This document shows, one piece after another, positions 5,316 through 17,243 of a stretch of DNA of 64,000 nt (position 1 is the first letter of the stretch; each line of letters opens with the position of its first letter). Below the pieces are notes generated by a model. It was given only the letters and a program-made list of their open reading frames with translations, was not told the DNA's origin and ran no database searches. The stretch is from positions 416,001-480,000 of the forward strand of contig OZ243913.1 in the NCBI GenBank assembly GCA_965213705.1, read 5' to 3'. The DNA comes from Trueperaceae bacterium (GTDB lineage: Bacteria; Deinococcota; Deinococci; Deinococcales; Trueperaceae). The position numbers and the translations under genes are program-made.

Positions 5316-6476
5316 TCAGTAGCGGTACACCGCCGCTACCAAGCCTCCGTCGGGTACTTCTTCTTTAAGCACGGCGTAGACTTTGCCACCGTTCAACAGG
5401 GTTTGCACCGCGGCCAAGTCGAGCAGGTCTTCGTCGCCGGACTGCTGTTCGTCGTGCAGTTCCAGGGTGCGGCTGTCGGGGTCGAAGCTGCCCCACTGCT
5501 GTTCGCCCAGGCCGACGACGAGCGTGTCGACGCGCGCGTCCACCGCCGCCAAGACGACCTCGTTCAGGTCGCCGGAGGCCGTGTCCAGGTGCGCCTGCGA
5601 GGCGTATTTCTCCAGCGCTTCTTGTCTGGCCCGGTCGAAGTGCGGCTCGACGACCGCCCAGGCTTTCTCTCGCACCTCGTCGTCGCGCCACTCGTCCGGG
5701 TTGCCGGTGACGGGTTCCGGCATGAGGTGGTTGTAGTGATTGGCCTCCTGGTAGAGGCTGAACAGGTAGTCCACGCCCGCGAACACCAACGGGGTGGTGC
5801 CCTCGTCGAGTTCGTCGGTCACGCCGTTCTCGAGCATCTTGAAATACCGCAAGATGTCCTCTTTTTTGTCGTTGTCGCTCGCGCCCGAGCCGTGAAAGGC
5901 GATGTCGGGCCGCGCCGCGCCCGGTCGACTGCCGGAAACCGCGTGGTACTGCAAGGACTCTTCGGGGTCGTCGAAGCGCAACGCCTCGGCCATGCTCGTC
6001 GGCACGTCGTCGGCAAGCTTGACCTCGGTGACGCTGTACTGCGTCGCCGCGAACAGCCGCGCCTTGTTCAGGCTCACCGCCAGCACGTGAAAACGGCCGT
6101 CGCCGGTCAACATGGGCAGCAGCGGTTTGAGGTGATAGCGCTCGGAGACGACCGTGAGGCTTTCGAACTCGACCGGCAAGCTGTAGGGGTGCGACTCGCC
6201 CTCGCTCAAAAACATGGCGAAGCCGCCGTACTGGTGCTGCCACAGGTCGTCGTCGTCGATAAGGGCCTGCGCCGGCGCGAGCAGCGCGGTCACCTCACGC
6301 GGGCCTAAACCCTTTTCTTCCAGCATCGCCGCGGCCTCTTGCACGCGGTTTTTGAAACGGATGGGGTTCTCGCGGGTGTCGGGGCCGGCCTGGTGCATCG
6401 GCGCGTAGAGCGAAACGGCGTATCCGCCTTTTTGAGCGCTCAGGGCAGTCAGGTCTTCTTTGGTCAGGGTATCCAT
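5316..6476 (-). CDS. Bacterial archaeo-eukaryotic release factor family protein (baeRF3/7-like)
   Basis: Start moved to MDTLTKEDL (SD GAGGAGGA); VSLYAP..PIRFKN, HLKPLLP, GNPD, ARVDTL, DLLDLAAVQTLLNGGKVY, AAVYRY; no GGQ. Confidence 0.8.
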   Translation of the reverse strand: MDTLTKEDLTALSAQKGGYAVSLYAPMHQAGPDTRENPIRFKNRVQEAAAMLEEKGLGPREVTALLAPAQALIDDDDLWQHQYGGFAMFLSEGESHPYSLPVEFESLTVVSERYHLKPLLPMLTGDGRFHVLAVSLNKARLFAATQYSVTEVKLADDVPTSMAEALRFDDPEESLQYHAVSGSRPGAARPDIAFHGSGASDNDKKEDILRYFKMLENGVTDELDEGTTPLVFAGVDYLFSLYQEANHYNHLMPEPVTGNPDEWRDDEVREKAWAVVEPHFDRARQEALEKYASQAHLDTASGDLNEVVLAAVDARVDTLVVGLGEQQWGSFDPDSRTLELHDEQQSGDEDLLDLAAVQTLLNGGKVYAVLKEEVPDGGLVAAVYRY

Positions 6477-6566
6477 AGTGTCCTCCTCATAAACATCGTA
6501 AACGTTCAGGCAGCATGGCACAGCCACACAAAAAGGACTGTAAGGTCGCTCGTTGGGTCCAAAATC

Positions 6567-6598
6567 ACATTGACAAACATCAATGTATTGACTAGAGT
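6567..6598 (+). promoter_or_regulatory. ars promoter TTGACA-N17-TAGAGT with overlapping inverted-repeat operator ACATTGA-N6-TCAATGT
   Basis: -35 at 6570-6575, -10 at 6593-6598, perfect 7-bp IR at 6567-6586; GTG start lies 6 nt after the -10. Confidence 0.8.
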
Positions 6599-6604
6599 AG
6601 TTTT

Positions 6605-6940
6605 GTGCCTCGAGTCCTGTTGCCCCCGGCCGCCGCCCCAAACACCTCGCTCACGGCCGAGGTCCGCACCTTCAAGGCGCTCGCCGACGAGGCGCGGCTC
6701 AAGATTTTGGCGCACCTCGTCAGCCAAGACGCCCGCTGCTGCACGCCCGGTGAAAGCGTGTGCGCCTGCGACTTGGAGGGCGTTACCGGCTTGTCCCAAC
6801 CCACCGTCAGCCACCACATGAAGGTGCTGATACAGGCCGAACTCGTCAGCGGCGAAAAGCGCGGCCGTTGGATGTACTACCGCGTCGACCCACAGGGTTT
6901 GGAGCTTGCCAAAGCAGCCCTGACGAGGCTCGGCGGCTAA
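6605..6940 (+). CDS. arsR: ArsR/SmtB family metalloregulator
   Basis: FKALADEARLKIL, CC..VCACDL, LSQPTVSHHMKVL, GRWMYY. Confidence 0.9.
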   Translation: MPRVLLPPAAAPNTSLTAEVRTFKALADEARLKILAHLVSQDARCCTPGESVCACDLEGVTGLSQPTVSHHMKVLIQAELVSGEKRGRWMYYRVDPQGLELAKAALTRLGG

Positions 6941-11461: not shown

Positions 11462-11510
11462 GTCCGCCTCCTAAAGCTCTGAGGCTACCACGCGGCGTTT
11501 GGTCTTGTTC

Positions 11511-14471
11511 CTACTTCGGATAAAGCTGCCGCTGCGGGACGAGGTGTTTGGTGTAGGGCCCGTACTGCCACCACAACTGCGCGAACGCGCCGCCGCTGCC
11601 GTCGAACAGTTCCAGGCTGACGGGGCAGGTTTGGCCGGCGCTCAAGGTTAGCTTGCCGCTGTTGGGCTGCGGCCCGTGGTAGGTCGTGTCGTTGAACAGG
11701 ACTTGCCCGCAGACTTCCAGGCGCACACCGTCGTCGGTGACGGTGGTGAAAGTGTACTCGCCCGCCTCGGTCGCCTGCACCGCGCCCGTCCAGCGCACGG
11801 TGAAGTCGTCCGCGCGCACGCCCGCAACGGGCGACCCCGGCCACTCGAAGTTGATAACAGGGTCGAGGCGCGTGACCGCCTCACCGCTGAAGTCGCGGCT
11901 GTTAAAGTACGCGCCCGTCAAGCCGGTGCCGCTGCCGGTCACGGGTGGGGGCGGGCCGCCATTTTTGACCTCGAGCTGGTCGTAGTCGTCCGCGGTAATC
12001 ATTTTGACGTGCAGCGTTCCGGCGTCGCCGTCGTAGTAGTAGCTCGGTTTGGAGGCGGTCTCGAGCGCGGCCAAGTCAACTGTCGAAGACAGTTCCCGGC
12101 CGTAGCGGCTGACGACGGGTAGCGCGTCGGCGAAAGGGATTTTCAGCCGCAGGGCGCGGGCCGCGCCCTGTTGCAACACAACGCGGAAAGTCGCGGGTCT
12201 TGCGCCCGCAAAGCCGAGCGTGTACTCGCGCTCCGGCAACAGCAACGTGCGAAAATGTTTGCTCGGCGACGCGCCCGTGCCGAACAGCGTGTGGGTCACG
12301 CCGTCGTCACGGCTGAGGCTGACCGAAACTCGGTCCTCGTCCAAGTTCACACTTAAAGCCGCATAAGTTTCGTCGCACACCCACGCCGTCCACTCGGCGC
12401 GGGCGCTGCACTTGTCGGTCAGCAAAAACGGGTTGTCCACGACGACGTAGCGCTCTGGCGTGCCGGTCACGCTGCCGTCCCGGTCCAAAAACACGGCGCT
12501 GCGGTAGCCGTCCCGGCTCCCCTTGGTGGGGTCTCCGGGTGGCATGGCGCTCTCGTCCAGCTCCAAGTACACCCGCTTTGTGCCGTCGCCTTCAAAGCTG
12601 AGCCCGCCAGCCTCGTTGCGCGGGTCGACCGAGAACGCCGTAAACCGCAGGTAGCTCAGCGCCGAGGCCTGTCGCCGGCTGTTCGGGACGAAGCGCGCAA
12701 AGTGCGAGGCTTCAGCCGACACCTTGCCGTCGTAAAACTCGAAACCGCGCACAGGAAAGTCCGGCTCCCAGGGTTTGGGCAAGCTGCGGCCGTCGGCTCC
12801 AACTTTGCCGTCCTCGACTTGCCAGGGCGGGGGCGTGCCCCTGTTCGCCGTCTCGCCGACGAACAGGCTGTCCGTCACGCTCGTGTCTTGCGAGGCGAAA
12901 GTCGCGCCGACGGCGTTGTCAGCCAGGCGTGCGTCCGTCAAGACGTGGTGCGCCCCGCGCAGCCACACGCCGCGGTTGCGGTTTTTGTAAGCGGTAAACC
13001 CTGTGAACTCGGCGGTGACCGGTTGGGAGGTGTTGCGCCCGTTTTCGACGGCGGTAGGAGTTTCGCTGGGCCGGTAGAAGCTCGTACCCACCGTGCCGTC
13101 CTCGCCGGGACCGCCGTCCACGTGCAAGCCGTCGCTGTTCGCCGAGTGAGCTACGTTGTTCGCAAACAAAGCTAGCGGCGTGTAGCGAGGCCACACCGCC
13201 GCGGTTTTGGACAGGCCGGTCGGGTGTTCGGGCAGGGCCAGCCAAAACCCCGACCCTTCCGAACCCGCGGCGACGTTGTCGGTCAAGCGGTTGGCGGGGT
13301 TGGTTAGCCAGTATACCGCCGGGCCGCGAAAGTCCCGGTCGGAAGGCAACAGGGCGTGTTCTGAGGCGGGTTTGTAGATGCTCAGCCCCAGGTTGTGGTC
13401 GAACACGTTGTCGGTTTCGGCCCCGTCTTCCAAAAAGAAGCAGTGGCCGGGCGCGTCGAAAGCCACGTTGTCCTGGACCAGCACGCCGTTCGAGCCGTGG
13501 ACGGTCACGCAGCGGTTGAAGCTGTGGTGGACGCTCGAGCCCACCACGAACTGGCCCCTGGAGGCGTCCCCCAGCATGTGCCAGTGAACGGGATAGCGGC
13601 CCATTCTGAAACGCTGGCCCATCCGGTAGAGTTCCGTACCGCTGACAAAAAGCCCCCCGCCCATCGCCATAAAGTGCCCGCCGAAACCGTCCACTTCCGA
13701 CGCGGCGTCGCCCTGAACCCGCACGTTGCGGCTCAGCAAACCGACCTCGGCGCGCATTTCAACGGTTTTGCCGCCGTAGGTTTCCCGACCGCTCCAGTGT
13801 GAATAAGCGGCGGGTTTGTCGAGCGACACCTTTGTGCCGGACACCCCGACGACTTCAAACACCTCGGCTTGTCGGTAGTCGAAGTCGGTCGAGGCGACGA
13901 CGACGGCGTCGCCGACGCGCCAGTCGGGGGCGGTGTCCAGCTCGAGCACCGTCCCTCCCTGGTCCAGGGTTTTAGCCAAGCGCGCCCAACTCGTCCTGGG
14001 TTCGCCGTGCAGTTGGACGACGCCGCCCGACATCGCGACCAAAAACTTGCCGCCCATCTTCATGACGTTTTCGTCCGGGCCGGTCAAGGTGATGACGGCC
14101 TTGTGGCTGAAAGGCCGCTCAAACGAGCCGACCTCGAGCTTGCCCGTTACTTCTATCCACCTCGCGCTCAAGCTCAGGTCCTGCGCGTCGAAAACGAGCG
14201 CGCCCCGAATGCTCAGGCTGCCCAGCTCGGGCGGGTTCACGTCGAGGAGGACGTTTTTGCCCGCGGGAATGGTGACGTTTTCGCCTGCACCCGGCACCGC
14301 GCCGCCCCAAGTGGCGGGGTCCGACCAGAGGGCGTTGGGAACGGTCGGAGGGGGTGGAGCGGGCACTTCGGCAGGAGGCGTCTCCGGGGGCGGCTCGGCG
14401 GGTGCGGGCGGCGGGCCGACCTGCTGACACGCGGCGAGCGCCACAAGAAGCGTTAGAAAAAAGCGTTTCAC
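11511..14471 (-). CDS. CEMIP/TMEM2-like lipoprotein: G8 domain, parallel beta-helix, C-terminal PA14 domain
   Basis: Lipobox LAA-C; Pro-rich linker; G8 (WSDPATW..VPGAGENVTI); RYPVHWH, SFNRCVTVHGSNG, GHCFFLEDG, LLPSDRD, FPVRGFEFYDG; PA14 (GTGLTGAYF..FTVRWTG..DDGVRL). Confidence 0.85.
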   Translation of the reverse strand: MKRFFLTLLVALAACQQVGPPPAPAEPPPETPPAEVPAPPPPTVPNALWSDPATWGGAVPGAGENVTIPAGKNVLLDVNPPELGSLSIRGALVFDAQDLSLSARWIEVTGKLEVGSFERPFSHKAVITLTGPDENVMKMGGKFLVAMSGGVVQLHGEPRTSWARLAKTLDQGGTVLELDTAPDWRVGDAVVVASTDFDYRQAEVFEVVGVSGTKVSLDKPAAYSHWSGRETYGGKTVEMRAEVGLLSRNVRVQGDAASEVDGFGGHFMAMGGGLFVSGTELYRMGQRFRMGRYPVHWHMLGDASRGQFVVGSSVHHSFNRCVTVHGSNGVLVQDNVAFDAPGHCFFLEDGAETDNVFDHNLGLSIYKPASEHALLPSDRDFRGPAVYWLTNPANRLTDNVAAGSEGSGFWLALPEHPTGLSKTAAVWPRYTPLALFANNVAHSANSDGLHVDGGPGEDGTVGTSFYRPSETPTAVENGRNTSQPVTAEFTGFTAYKNRNRGVWLRGAHHVLTDARLADNAVGATFASQDTSVTDSLFVGETANRGTPPPWQVEDGKVGADGRSLPKPWEPDFPVRGFEFYDGKVSAEASHFARFVPNSRRQASALSYLRFTAFSVDPRNEAGGLSFEGDGTKRVYLELDESAMPPGDPTKGSRDGYRSAVFLDRDGSVTGTPERYVVVDNPFLLTDKCSARAEWTAWVCDETYAALSVNLDEDRVSVSLSRDDGVTHTLFGTGASPSKHFRTLLLPEREYTLGFAGARPATFRVVLQQGAARALRLKIPFADALPVVSRYGRELSSTVDLAALETASKPSYYYDGDAGTLHVKMITADDYDQLEVKNGGPPPPVTGSGTGLTGAYFNSRDFSGEAVTRLDPVINFEWPGSPVAGVRADDFTVRWTGAVQATEAGEYTFTTVTDDGVRLEVCGQVLFNDTTYHGPQPNSGKLTLSAGQTCPVSLELFDGSGGAFAQLWWQYGPYTKHLVPQRQLYPK

Positions 14472-14525
14472 AAGTTTCCTCTCACAGGAGGCTGAGAAAG
14501 TATCGGCAACTCAAAAAGTCGCCCT

Positions 14526-14600
14526 CAGCCGGTTGCGCTACTCGCTCCCCTCGTCCTAAAGCGCCCAAATGATGAGACGAGGTTCACAGCATTCCGAGAC
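14526..14600 (-). promoter_or_regulatory. c-di-GMP-II riboswitch
   Basis: Minus strand CGGAAUGCUGUGAA-CCUCGUC...UUUGGGCGCUUUA-GGACGAGG-GGAGCGAGUAGCGCAACCGG fits the class II consensus, with a GCGCU/AGCGC pseudoknot; 5' UTR of the lipoprotein gene; TAGACT -10 at 14633-14638. Confidence 0.85.
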
Positions 14601-14675
14601 AACGTTCCGAGAGCGAAAGACTCTCAGGGTCCAGTCTAGCGGACGCCGCTCTGAAAAGCTGTCTAAAGTTCCACG

Positions 14676-15149
14676 CTAGCGGCGTGGGTAAACAACCCAG
14701 AACCGTTCGCACACCAGCGGCATCGTCTCGTCGAACGCATACCCCGACGCTTCGCCTTCGCGGATGAAAAAGCGTTTGTGCGCCTCACGCCAGTAAGCGA
14801 GCGACCGGTCCCCTTCTCCCTCGGCCCGGGCGAAGTCCGCGCCGACCTCGCCGTAGGGTTTGACCTCGACCCGGGTCGTTTCGATGACGCACAAGGGCTC
14901 TCCCCTGCCGTCCAGAACGATGCTGAGGCGGCCGGTTTCGGGAACGGGTTCGCCGTCCAGCTCGAGCCCCCGCAGCGAACAGCAAGTCGCCGTTTTCGTT
15001 CCCGCTGTGACCAGGCGGCCCAACTCGTCCGCCATCTCCGAACTGTCGCCGAAGCTCCAGGCTTCGTACTCGCTGGGGCGTTCGGCGTCGGGCAGAGATG
15101 CCAGATAAGCTTGCCAAAACGCTTCGACCTGCGGACCGACCTCACTCAT
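14676..15149 (-). CDS. ASCH domain protein
   Basis: AWSFGD..ADELG.LV..GTKTATC, FARAEGEGDRSL.YW, VCERF. Confidence 0.9.
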   Translation of the reverse strand: MSEVGPQVEAFWQAYLASLPDAERPSEYEAWSFGDSSEMADELGRLVTAGTKTATCCSLRGLELDGEPVPETGRLSIVLDGRGEPLCVIETTRVEVKPYGEVGADFARAEGEGDRSLAYWREAHKRFFIREGEASGYAFDETMPLVCERFWVVYPRR

Positions 15150-15283: not shown

Positions 15284-15745
15284 TCAGCGGCGTTTGAGCG
15301 CCTGCAACCGCTTCGTCGCCTCGTCGGCGTTCAGCTCGCCCCGCTCGAGCGCGCTCAACACCTCGGCGCGTTCGTTTTTGGTTTCTTCGACGCTTTCAAA
15401 AGCCTCGTAGCCGAGGGTGCGCAGCAGCGTCTCGAAGCGCAGTCGCACGGTCGGGTAACTGAGACCCAGGATGCGCTCGACCTCTTTGAGGTTGCCCCGC
15501 ACCTTGACGAACAGGCGCAGGTACTCGAGCTGTTCCTCGGGCAGCAGCGCGAACTCGTTGGGTTGAAACCGGCCCTCGATGCTCACGCCGCTCGTCGGGC
15601 ACTCCAAGCGGGTAACCTCCAGCGGCTCGCCCGTCGCCGGGCACTTTACGGGCATCGGCAACTTGGACGTCGGCGGTCTGGACGTCGGCAACTTGGACGT
15701 CGGCGGTTTAGACGTCGGCGGTTTGTCCTGTTGAGACTCAGCCAT
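15284..15745 (-). CDS. DUF2089 family (zinc ribbon-HTH-SHOCT-like) protein
   Basis: CPATG..LEC, RGNLKEVERILGLSYPTVR, VLSALERGELNADEA; TGATG coupling to the upstream gene. Confidence 0.88.
   Translation of the reverse strand: MAESQQDKPPTSKPPTSKLPTSRPPTSKLPMPVKCPATGEPLEVTRLECPTSGVSIEGRFQPNEFALLPEEQLEYLRLFVKVRGNLKEVERILGLSYPTVRLRFETLLRTLGYEAFESVEETKNERAEVLSALERGELNADEATKRLQALKRR
15655..15724. repeat. In-frame 15-bp tandem repeat, about 5 copies (KPPTS/KLPTS)
   Basis: tcggcaacttggacg / tcggcggtctggacg / tcggcaacttggacg / tcggcggtttagacg / tcggcggttt. Confidence 0.9.
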
Positions 15746-16140
15746 CACACGACCTCAATGGTGACGGTCACTTCGTCGGTCGCGCCGCCCGCTTGGATGT
15801 CGACCAGGGGGCCGCTCGGGAAGTTGCCGTCCAGCGAGCCCAAAAGCTCGTCCAAGTCGATGCCTTGCCGGTCTAGGTGGGCGCGCGCCTCTTTGGGGAT
15901 GAACCGCTCGGCGAACTTGGCAAGCCCCAAGGGCACGTTGAGGTTCAGCGTCGACTCGTCGGTGCTGTCCGAAGCGCAAATGCTGATGCGCAGCACCCGA
16001 GCGATGCCCTTGGGCGCGGGCGGCGCGGGCGGTGGGGGCGGCGTACTCGCCGAGCCCAAAGCTTCTAAAAGTTGGGCGGCTTCGTCGGCGGTCAGTTCCC
16101 CGGCGACGAGCAGGTCTAAAATGCGGCGTTGTTCGGTCAT
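15745..16140 (-). CDS. SHOCT-like (YvlB/LiaX N-terminal-like) domain protein
   Basis: Start moved to MTEQRRILDLLVAGELTADEAAQLLEAL; NLNVPLGLAKFA; DUF2089 operon context. Confidence 0.8.
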   Translation of the reverse strand: MTEQRRILDLLVAGELTADEAAQLLEALGSASTPPPPPAPPAPKGIARVLRISICASDSTDESTLNLNVPLGLAKFAERFIPKEARAHLDRQGIDLDELLGSLDGNFPSGPLVDIQAGGATDEVTVTIEVV

Positions 16141-16144
16141 GGAT

Positions 16145-17050
16145 TCAGCCACAGCGCACCTCCAGGTCGCCCGCGCTGACCGACACCTCGAGGCTTGCCT
16201 CGCCCCCACCGACTTGCCCGACCAGACTGCTGCCCATACCGATTCGCCGAACGGACAAGGGGGCGTCGGCGGCCACGTCGCCCATACTTATCCCGCCGGT
16301 CACGCGCACGCTCGAGCCCTCCAGCAGGGTGATGTTCAGGTCGCCTGCGGACAGTTTGACGCGGTGCTCGCCCTTCGTCAGACGCACGCTTGCGTTTACG
16401 TCGCCGGCACTTAAGCCGAGGTCGACGCCGCCCACGTCCTGCACGTTCAGGTCGCCTGCCAACAACCTGGCCTTGACAAAGGGTGCGCCGCTTACCCGAA
16501 CGTCCCCCGCCTTGCTGTCCACGACGACGCCGAACCCCGCCGGAATCCTGATTTTCAGGTCGCCCATGCGCTCAAAAAGACCGCCGACAAACTCGCTGAC
16601 CCCGTCGACGAGGCCGTCCAACCCCTCACGACGTGGCACCTTGTCTTTTTTGCGCTTGAGGGGTCGAATGACGAAGTCGTCGCCGTCTCGTTTGACTTCA
16701 AACTGTGCGGCCTCACCGTCGACTTCCGGCTCGCTGAGGGCGGGGTCTACGCAAATGTTCAAGTCGCCCGTGAGCATACTGGCGCGGACCCAGCGCAAAC
16801 CCTGGGGCAAATCGTCTTTTTTTTGGGCTCGAGCCAGTGCGGCTCGGGCGACGTCTCTCGCTTCCTGAACCACTTCCGCACGAGGGCTTTCGCGCTCAGC
16901 CTCGCGCTCAGCCTCGCCCGTTTCTTCAATTTCCGAATTTTTCAAAGCACTAAGGAGCCGCGTGGCCTCCTCCTGCGTGATTTTCCCCTTGGCAACCAAG
17001 GCCTGAATGCGTTCCTGGTCGGTCTTGCCGCCGGTCGTGTCGTCTGCCAT
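16145..17050 (-). CDS. DUF4097-like beta-strand repeat protein with N-terminal SHOCT-like helix pair
   Basis: Start MADD (SD GAAAGGA); LVAKGKITQEEATRLL; repeated (S/L)AGD(V/L) turns. Confidence 0.78.
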   Translation of the reverse strand: MADDTTGGKTDQERIQALVAKGKITQEEATRLLSALKNSEIEETGEAEREAERESPRAEVVQEARDVARAALARAQKKDDLPQGLRWVRASMLTGDLNICVDPALSEPEVDGEAAQFEVKRDGDDFVIRPLKRKKDKVPRREGLDGLVDGVSEFVGGLFERMGDLKIRIPAGFGVVVDSKAGDVRVSGAPFVKARLLAGDLNVQDVGGVDLGLSAGDVNASVRLTKGEHRVKLSAGDLNITLLEGSSVRVTGGISMGDVAADAPLSVRRIGMGSSLVGQVGGGEASLEVSVSAGDLEVRCG

Positions 17051-17051
17051 G

Positions 17052-17243
17052 TCAAAAGGTCCTTTCAAACGTGAAGTCCTGTGCGGCTTCGGGCTCGAGG
17101 TGTGCGGCCAGCGCCCTCAGCAAAGACGCGAAGTGGTGGCGCAAACTACCTCTTCGAACTTGGCTGCGCCACGCCGCCTCACGTTCGTACCGCTCTACTT
17201 TTGCCCGACCCACCCTTAAAAGCTCGTAGGGATGTTCGTTCAC
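17052..17243 (-). CDS. Small hypothetical protein, first gene of the DUF4097-DUF2089 operon
   Basis: 63 aa; strong SD AAGGAGG; ends 1 nt before the next start. Confidence 0.65.
   Translation of the reverse strand: MNEHPYELLRVGRAKVERYEREAAWRSQVRRGSLRHHFASLLRALAAHLEPEAAQDFTFERTF

Follow-up and report, generated by a model that had tools for sequence, protein, structure and literature searches.

The question raised by this locus is what a bacterial relative of the animal proteins CEMIP and TMEM2 does behind a riboswitch for cyclic di-GMP (c-di-GMP). The locus lies on a 64,000-nucleotide (nt) stretch of a Trueperaceae bacterium (assembly GCA_965213705.1, contig OZ243913.1, positions 416,001 to 480,000), which is called the window and numbered from its first letter. 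A first-pass annotation had described here a 986-amino-acid (aa) surface lipoprotein with a class II c-di-GMP aptamer in its gene's 5' untranslated region (UTR). That anatomy holds, but hyaluronan and a firm OFF switch do not.

A bacterial member of the G8 and CEMIP beta-helix superfamily

The open reading frame (ORF), its lipobox and the annotated G8, beta-helix and PA14 composition were all found, and so were the five motifs said to resemble TMEM2 and CEMIP; those common to the lipoprotein and TMEM2 read RYPxHxH, RCxTxHG, GHCFFLEDG, LLPxD and RGF..YDG. The lipoprotein matched TMEM2 (8C6I) in phmmer with E 3.6e-97. An AlphaFold2 model was built from 96 sequences (predicted local distance difference test, pLDDT, 91.2; predicted template modelling score, pTM, 0.83; PA14 part less certain). 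The proposed comparison with the TMEM2 ectodomain revealed a TMEM2-like fold, with Z 39.9, a root-mean-square deviation of 1.8 A over 754 aligned residues and 34% identity, model residues 41-840 being aligned to TMEM2 112-1159 (Foldseek E 1.1e-52). The next best folds were the AlgG/AlgE epimerases (Z 22-23), followed by tailspikes and RbmB. The lipoprotein is a member of the superfamily of G8 plus CEMIP beta-helix proteins (PF10162 and PF24606); no NCBIfam family was found for the protein core. The features of the gene were as follows.

11511-14471, minus strand: 986-aa CEMIP/TMEM2-like lipoprotein gene, GTG start
14334-14471, minus strand: signal peptide, lipobox LAAC at Cys15 and Pro-rich linker, residues 1-46 (read from sequence; linker of low pLDDT)
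13974-14312, minus strand: G8 domain, residues 54-166, where the continuous beta-helix begins (Pfam PF10162, E 7.5e-31)
13125-13688, minus strand: CEMIP beta-helix core, residues 262-449 (Pfam PF24606, E 2.9e-69)
13578-13598, minus strand: RYPVHWH, residues 292-298, candidate catalytic Tyr/His motif
11952-12356, minus strand: domain-X-like beta-sandwich, about residues 706-840 (model aligns with TMEM2 to 840/1159)
11547-11927, minus strand: PA14 domain, residues 849-975 (Pfam PF07691, E 2.6e-17)

Compared with human TMEM2 (CEMIP2, 8C6I) and CEMIP (KIAA1199/HYBID), the order of G8, small beta-sandwich, beta-helix and domain X was the same. The animal proteins differ in carrying the lectin domains GG-1 and GG-2, and the lipoprotein has instead a lipid anchor, a C-terminal PA14 domain and riboswitch control. 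GG-1 was skipped as an alignment gap at 8C6I chain 170-338, and 18-19 residues stood at its insertion point in 96/96 close homologues. GG-2 was not present, since the alignment stops at TMEM2 1159 and PA14 takes that place. Residues R265, D273, D286 and H248/A303 lie in GG-1 (PMC10206443, PMC12423501), and Asp170 of the lipoprotein, at the TMEM2 H/N248 position, was not conserved. The kinship claimed in the annotation thus stood in homology and fold, while the lipoprotein lies outside the CEMIP/TMEM2 hyaluronan depolymerases proper. Hyaluronan is very unlikely as its natural substrate because both GG domains, with every residue linked to hyaluronan activity in the literature consulted, are missing.

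The TMEM2-homology regions of fibrocystin and fibrocystin-L (PKHD1, PKHD1L1) likewise combine G8, beta-helix and domain X without GG domains, and fibrocystins hold PA14 in the same chain (bioRxiv 10.64898/2026.10.19.758525). The lipoprotein differs from them in its single repeat, the lack of an IPT chain and its bacterial lipid anchor (vertebrate PKHD1 was not among the sequences compared). Its PA14 part matched the RsgI3 PA14 structure (E 3.9e-44) and is likely sugar-binding; the domain was missing from most homologues.

Invariant residues and a candidate active site

Conservation was evaluated on 96 of the best 120 close homologues and on 41 long homologues. The long set comprises algal and invertebrate proteins resembling fibrocystin-L, a single mammalian CEMIP and large bacterial proteins. 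R292, Y293, P294, H296, H298, R320, H325, H343, F346, E348, E352, W388, W410, H442, W503, R505, Y580 and D581 were invariant in 96/96 close homologues. In the model (DSSP), these residues lie on or just before successive beta-helix strands, where they alternate with variable hydrophobic residues, which suggests that they face outward, toward the groove. Human TMEM2 keeps R546, Y547, H550, H552, R580, H585, H603 and E608 (numbering counted by hand with an offset of 82 and checked at N248, C554 and C750). The His/Glu set was also kept in CEMIP and in the first fibrocystin-L repeats, as in the lipoprotein. Among the 41 first repeats of the long homologues, H296 and H298 were each found in 38 (2 gaps each), H325 in 39 (1 gap) and E348 in all 41. 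Of 21 later repeats, none carried H296, H298 or H325 and five carried E348. As the later repeats keep the fold without them, the three histidines are not needed for folding and appear to be conserved for function.

The invariant R292-Y293-x-x-H296-x-H298 plus H325/E348 set, with the three histidines lost in later repeats, is new: neither bacterial G8/CEMIP proteins nor these histidines were the subject of any paper returned by a literature search that covered few subscription papers. It points to a predicted active site, whose position in the human proteins has yet to be found. Its spacing equals that of the alginate enzyme AlgE7, R148-Y149-x-x-D152-x-H154, the lipoprotein having His for Asp. 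In AlgE7, Y149 serves as acid, H154 as base, and R148 is needed for lyase activity (PMC8824271). The mannuronan C5-epimerases/lyases AlgG and AlgE4/6/7 superposed with Z 22.8, 22.4 and 20.9 and the Vibrio cholerae lyase RbmB with 19.0; identity was 13-15%. Membership of AlgG/AlgE at the sequence level was rejected, since the profile built from 96 sequences had no match to AlgE or AlgG at E up to 10 and the motif is Y-x-x-H-x-H, not Y-x-x-D-x-H. The likeness may be taken as a lead on how the site could work by analogy, not as family membership. Separately, the close homologues P0004-P0009 and P0017, two of them labelled Chloroflexota, add a cupredoxin domain and most of them also PA14; such a fusion is consistent with the idea that the histidine cluster may have a metal or redox role.

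The class II riboswitch and its regulon

The Rfam search proposed in the annotation matched RF01786 on the minus strand at 14518-14603 over the full model (1-84), and its 58.6 bits (E 1.9e-10) exceed the gathering score of 53.5. This was the sole above-threshold Rfam match within the window. The pseudoknot, read from the alignment, is intact as had been claimed (GCGCU at 14564-14560 with AGCGC at 14539-14535, 5 bp), and so is the GCAACCG pocket segment; the aptamer ends 46 nt before the GTG start. By score, pseudoknot, pocket segment and a P1-excluding platform, the aptamer belongs to class RF01786, and it very probably controls the lipoprotein gene. DNA contigs from a single sample (2 runs; it may be the source of the window itself) covered the stretch, and no differences were listed. 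The leader contains the following elements.

14633-14638, minus strand: putative -10 element TAGACT, inferred from sequence; transcription would start at about 14626
14607-14627, minus strand: 5' leader hairpin, in which the leader pairs with a duplicate of the P1 5' strand
14518-14603, minus strand: c-di-GMP-II riboswitch aptamer (RF01786), canonical GCAACC type
14490-14530, minus strand: anti-P1 helix in the fold predicted without ligand, with an 8-nt bulge; the full helix is not followed by a U-tract
14477-14499, minus strand: switching strand UUUCUCA (14499-14493) and Shine-Dalgarno (SD) region UGAGAGGA (14484-14477), predicted to pair when the ligand holds P1

The TAGACT hexamer was not called as a promoter by a sigma-70 scan; it also occurs about 20 nt 5' of the aptamer in the related genome G021. 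The competition of GGCUGAG...CUCAGCC with the aptamer 3' end, noted in the annotation, is a real pairing. Extended by GGCGACUU/GAGUUGCC, it grows to a 15-bp anti-P1 helix of -25.1 kcal/mol (z -2.87; 3/200 shuffles equally good), and the duplex alone gave -19.6 kcal/mol (0.6% of 1000 shuffles). In the ligand-free fold the P1 3' strand was captured in this helix (14530-14490). The second annotated pairing, of UUUCUCA with UGAGAGG in the SD region, was also recovered: with the aptamer withheld from folding, UUUCUCA(G) paired with UGAGAG in the minimum free energy structure. Opening the SD cost 6.3 kcal/mol in the bound state vs 4.6 in the free state.

An inner hairpin (14523-14505) was flagged as terminator-like; the GAUACUUU after it and the UCCUGUG after the full anti-P1 helix are poor U-tracts. 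A U-tract followed the anti-P1 helix in 1/66 aptamers, so terminator control is rare in the regulon, and intrinsic terminator control was rejected at the locus. The direction of switching was calculated for 45 curated sites, obtained from 54 with a signal-type ORF after removing nine because the start was wrong, a tandem copy lay upstream or the distance was long. Among them 17 leaned OFF, 5 ON and 19 were neutral, and in 4 the ribosome-binding site (RBS) window overlapped P1; the non-cognate aptamer control gave 29% OFF and 18% ON. Within the regulon, OFF switching is predicted most plainly for L114 (G002:C433) and L117 (G002:C60), where the P1 3' strand contains the SD (GGAGG) and a subtilase lipoprotein starts 3-5 nt beyond the SD. 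The 5' leader paired with the P1 5' strand itself in 6/7 UTRs linked to the lipoprotein gene, and across 68 sites in 14 genomes a complementary leader strand was found at 59%, vs 24-25% in controls. In the window (14607-14627) the leader pairing goes instead to a short duplicated stretch of the P1 5' strand.

Like Cdi-2-1 to Cdi-2-4 of Clostridioides difficile (RF01786), the aptamer scores above the gathering threshold, has an intact pseudoknot and precedes a cell-surface protein. It differs from them in lacking an intrinsic terminator or group I intron, in being predicted to act on translation with a lean to OFF and, in relatives, in the leader strand competing with P1.

The recurrence of the pair, which the annotation had proposed to check in homologue UTRs, was evaluated in 128 family genomes, of which 49 contained the gene and 115 the aptamer. 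Among 54 fetched family loci, 48 had enough upstream DNA, and an aptamer within 150 nt of the lipobox was detected in 7 of them, belonging to 5 genera (host genome G000, G017, G021, G046, G053, G108 and G109). Four of these seven aptamers have long loop insertions that put them below the Rfam cut-off, and the one of G109 rests on a motif match and reading. These long forms (L010 in G017, L128 in G046, L131 in G108 and L132 in G109) measure 118-165 nt, with the insertions in the loop around the pseudoknot strand; the aptamer family is undercounted because such members miss the cut-off. No aptamer preceded the gene in 14 loci of three other families that have it, and a contig scan for further loci gave one, without an Rfam match. 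The kin are not independent, so the counts are given as they stand. In a quick, midpoint-rooted tree of 51 rows, from which G053 was left out, five aptamer-linked proteins belonged to a single group (SH-aLRT 94) that also included Chloroflexota proteins and a paralogue lacking the aptamer, and G021 fell outside it; the tree supports no claim on donor or order of events. The homologue family is large, with 2466 matches among 8000 scored candidates, and occurs in many phyla with varied binding modules; its Atlas clusters are named 'G8 domain protein' only, and the G017 homologue has 898 aa.

The lipoprotein gene is single-copy in the host genome, near dnaA and flanked by ASCH and DinB/DnaJ genes. 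The whole cassette of promoter, riboswitch and gene (11478-14685, minus strand) was delimited by block comparison with the same-genus genome G001, in which this entire block is missing and ASCH is joined to DinB. A DUF4097, SHOCT-like and DUF2089 operon (15284-17068, minus strand) is the conserved upstream neighbour of the cassette, the DUF2089 neighbour being common to G000, G021, G108 and G109. An extracellular polysaccharide (EPS) operon context was rejected: none was seen here or, among the nearest neighbours scanned, in 9 relatives, where only a convergent GH26 gene in G109 and a GT1 gene near the G056 locus turned up. Elsewhere in the window, a baeRF release-factor-like gene (families 7/3) lies at 5316-6641, minus strand.

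Six c-di-GMP-II aptamers (four above the cut-off), 30 GGDEF matches and Rho were found in the host genome. A regulon sample of 71 aptamer matches from 14 genomes gave an ORF in 68 cases. A lipobox ORF followed 41/68 sites, a count in which tandems enter twice and some true ones are missed, vs 141/3813 background ORFs (3.7%). Scanning 53/62 distinct target ORFs gave 9 GH26, 2 GH99, 2 apiosidase, 4 beta-helix and 1 AlgF protein (18/53 together), besides 7 subtilases, 2 GGDEF proteins and 16 without a family. The gene is one interchangeable target of a family-wide surface-lipoprotein riboswitch regulon, many members of which are glycan-active, and not a dedicated system. Dedicated lyases of EPS operons, exemplified by PslG, AlgL and RbmB, would lie inside an EPS synthesis cluster, and none was found around this gene among the neighbours scanned. 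From the annotated 'riboswitch-gated matrix remodelling or dispersal system' the riboswitch-gene link is kept, and dispersal is conjectural because the gene is one of many targets and no EPS operon adjoins it.

An algF-MBOAT-algX block without an adjacent synthase was found in the host genome (G000:C1 1340660-1343755), and suggests an acetylated surface glycan as a possible substrate. The AlgF gene behind an aptamer is in G002. A GH88-family unsaturated glucuronyl hydrolase was not found in the 98% complete host genome, and an ambiguous KduI/IolB match was not used. The second-best host aptamer (G000:C1 ~127845, L069:446) is followed by an ORF that encodes a signal peptide and ends after 44 codons, which may be a small protein, a frameshift or a pseudogene. 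Two host aptamers lead subtilase lipoproteins with GG(R/V)(S/R)AW repeats (G000:C1 877521-878873, L071, and 3132922-3136231, L072), each followed by a large gene, the second of which has a GGDEF domain. Tandem aptamers, known from Paraclostridium (PMC9481103), were present in Trueperaceae-like genomes (L080, L089, L090, L093, L102 and L121), often before GH26 lipoproteins. A family of 84-92 aa proteins with a YRCYWP motif and no Pfam match stood behind aptamers in two genera (L110:410-661, L110:972-1247 and L087:3618-3887).

Proposed function and competing readings

Without ligand, the P1 3' strand would be captured in the 15-bp helix and the SD would sit in a 4-bp hairpin only. When c-di-GMP is bound, P1 would be held and UUUCUCAG freed to pair over GAGAG of the SD region, so that translation would occur mainly at low c-di-GMP. 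The lipoprotein made in this state would cleave or trim an acidic polysaccharide outside the cell, probably that of its own matrix. The protein is probably a glycan-active enzyme, and OFF at high c-di-GMP is slightly favoured as the direction of the switch. The own matrix and food are evenly balanced as targets. The combined reading, a membrane-anchored TMEM2-fold protein that trims the matrix mainly at low c-di-GMP, is put just short of an even chance. A bolder form is possible but on balance doubtful. In it, the lipoprotein would be a minimal, ancestral-type TMEM2/CEMIP/fibrocystin enzyme whose RYPxHxH rung and stacked His/Glu residues (TMEM2 Y547, H550, H552, H585 and E608) form the missing catalytic centre, either Tyr/His-based as in alginate epimerase-lyases or a His3-Glu metal site. 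The animal GG domains would add only hyaluronan specificity, the first fibrocystin-L repeat would be active and the second dead, and the Trueperaceae c-di-GMP-II regulon, with its leader-versus-P1 switch, would shut off matrix-trimming enzymes.

Several results weigh against the matrix-trimming OFF reading. At the locus the OFF margin is only 1.3-1.7 kcal/mol when the SD is considered and 0.5-1.3 when wider windows are taken, and 5/7 linked UTRs lean ON by the same calculation, two of these five being biased by an RBS window that overlaps P1. Of the annotated mechanism, translational rather than terminator control stands and OFF is a thin lean. The ligand-free fold is about 10 kcal/mol more stable than the P1-enforced fold computed without the pseudoknot, so switching must be kinetic or use tertiary energy. 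Downstream anti-P1 pairing is barely enriched across the regulon (48% vs 33-40%), and at 41/48 family loci the aptamer is missing. In C. difficile, each of the four class II switches is ON, and most of them precede adhesins (PMC6200980; all four ON also in PMC6366702). The gene has no EPS synthesis operon next to it here, where the neighbours are ASCH, DinB, DnaJ and DUF2089, and in 9 relatives the 80 ORFs closest to it, out of 237 called, contained no EPS cluster.

On the protein side, R292 is replaced by His in the riboswitch-linked G053 copy, and the register with the alginate enzymes is mixed. The folded fragment 286-470 starts at AlgG 309, AlgE4/E6 168 and 8jaz/8ja4 110, and on TMEM2 itself it starts about one rung early; the AlgG 309 start is compatible with the proposed register and adjoins the catalytic residue D317, which is mutated in 4nk8. 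TMEM2 loop 627-662, which blocks the groove (PMC10206443), is about 19-21 residues shorter in the lipoprotein, but a second blocking loop, TMEM2 733-756, has a similar length. Purified human TMEM2 was inactive in one study (PMC10206443); activity was found in another (PMC10474455), and mouse TMEM2 and CEMIP depolymerise hyaluronan (PMC12423501).

The ON precedent of C. difficile, where three of four switches precede adhesins, together with the ON-leaning linked UTRs, the terminator-like inner hairpin, the host's Rho and a regulon in which AlgF and small secreted proteins that match no Pfam family occur, would fit a matrix-building or glycan-binding surface protein, such as an adhesin or EPS-processing factor, made at high c-di-GMP. 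This is somewhat unlikely, because the SD lies outside the anti-P1 helix at the locus, the hairpin tails are poor U-tracts, the lean across the family is OFF (17 vs 5 of 45) and the invariant His/Glu residues suggest chemistry beyond binding. That the lipoprotein forages on polysaccharides from its surroundings (EPS of algae or microbes) and is repressed by c-di-GMP along with the GH26, GH99, apiosidase and subtilase lipoproteins, is unlikely: no transporter or catabolic gene adjoins it, the GH88-family gene was not found, and a lifestyle signal is in control, with no sugar regulator adjoining the gene. Its appeal lies in the many secreted hydrolases of the regulon, in the varied binding modules of homologues in many phyla, and in the patchiness of the cassette, which is cleanly missing from G001.

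The site itself might be non-lytic, belonging to a polymer epimerase, a metal-dependent modifier, or a metal or structural site in a non-catalytic scaffold of the kind some have proposed for human TMEM2. C5-epimerases are the best folds after TMEM2, both reactions occur at one site in AlgE7 (PMC8824271), three to five His plus Glu/Asp are compatible with a metal site, and human TMEM2 keeps all residues yet was inactive in one study. We consider this decidedly unlikely, as the Arg before Tyr, a lyase determinant in AlgE7, is present in 96/96 close homologues and the mouse proteins are depolymerases. That the aptamer is a relic in decay, caught in the anti-P1 fold and without effect on the gene, is highly improbable. 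The 5 bits over the cut-off, the several G-U pairs and bulge in P1, the stability of the free fold and the missing aptamer at most homologues would agree with decay, but the ligand-pocket segments and pseudoknot match the consensus, the 15-bp competing helix is unlikely by chance and the link is kept in 5 genera.

Class II riboswitches are described as mainly clostridial (PMC12564702), and the limited literature search mentioned above returned nothing on them in Deinococcota; the regulon is a large one outside Clostridia of which no description was found in the literature searched, and it ties a bacterial CEMIP-like family to c-di-GMP lifestyle control. The enzymatic nature and active-site location of TMEM2 and CEMIP are openly disputed (PMC10206443, PMC10474455), the location in TMEM2 being named an open question (PMC10206443), and whether fibrocystin repeats are enzymatic has been left open (bioRxiv 10.64898/2026.10.19.758525, PMC13424714, PMC11781568). 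The bacterial version offers a soluble domain without lectin domains, a shorter blocking loop and a small set of invariant residues that the degenerate fibrocystin-L repeat has lost, so that five point mutants could test the site, also in TMEM2. The main value of the finding is this testable active-site hypothesis for the TMEM2/CEMIP/fibrocystin superfamily.

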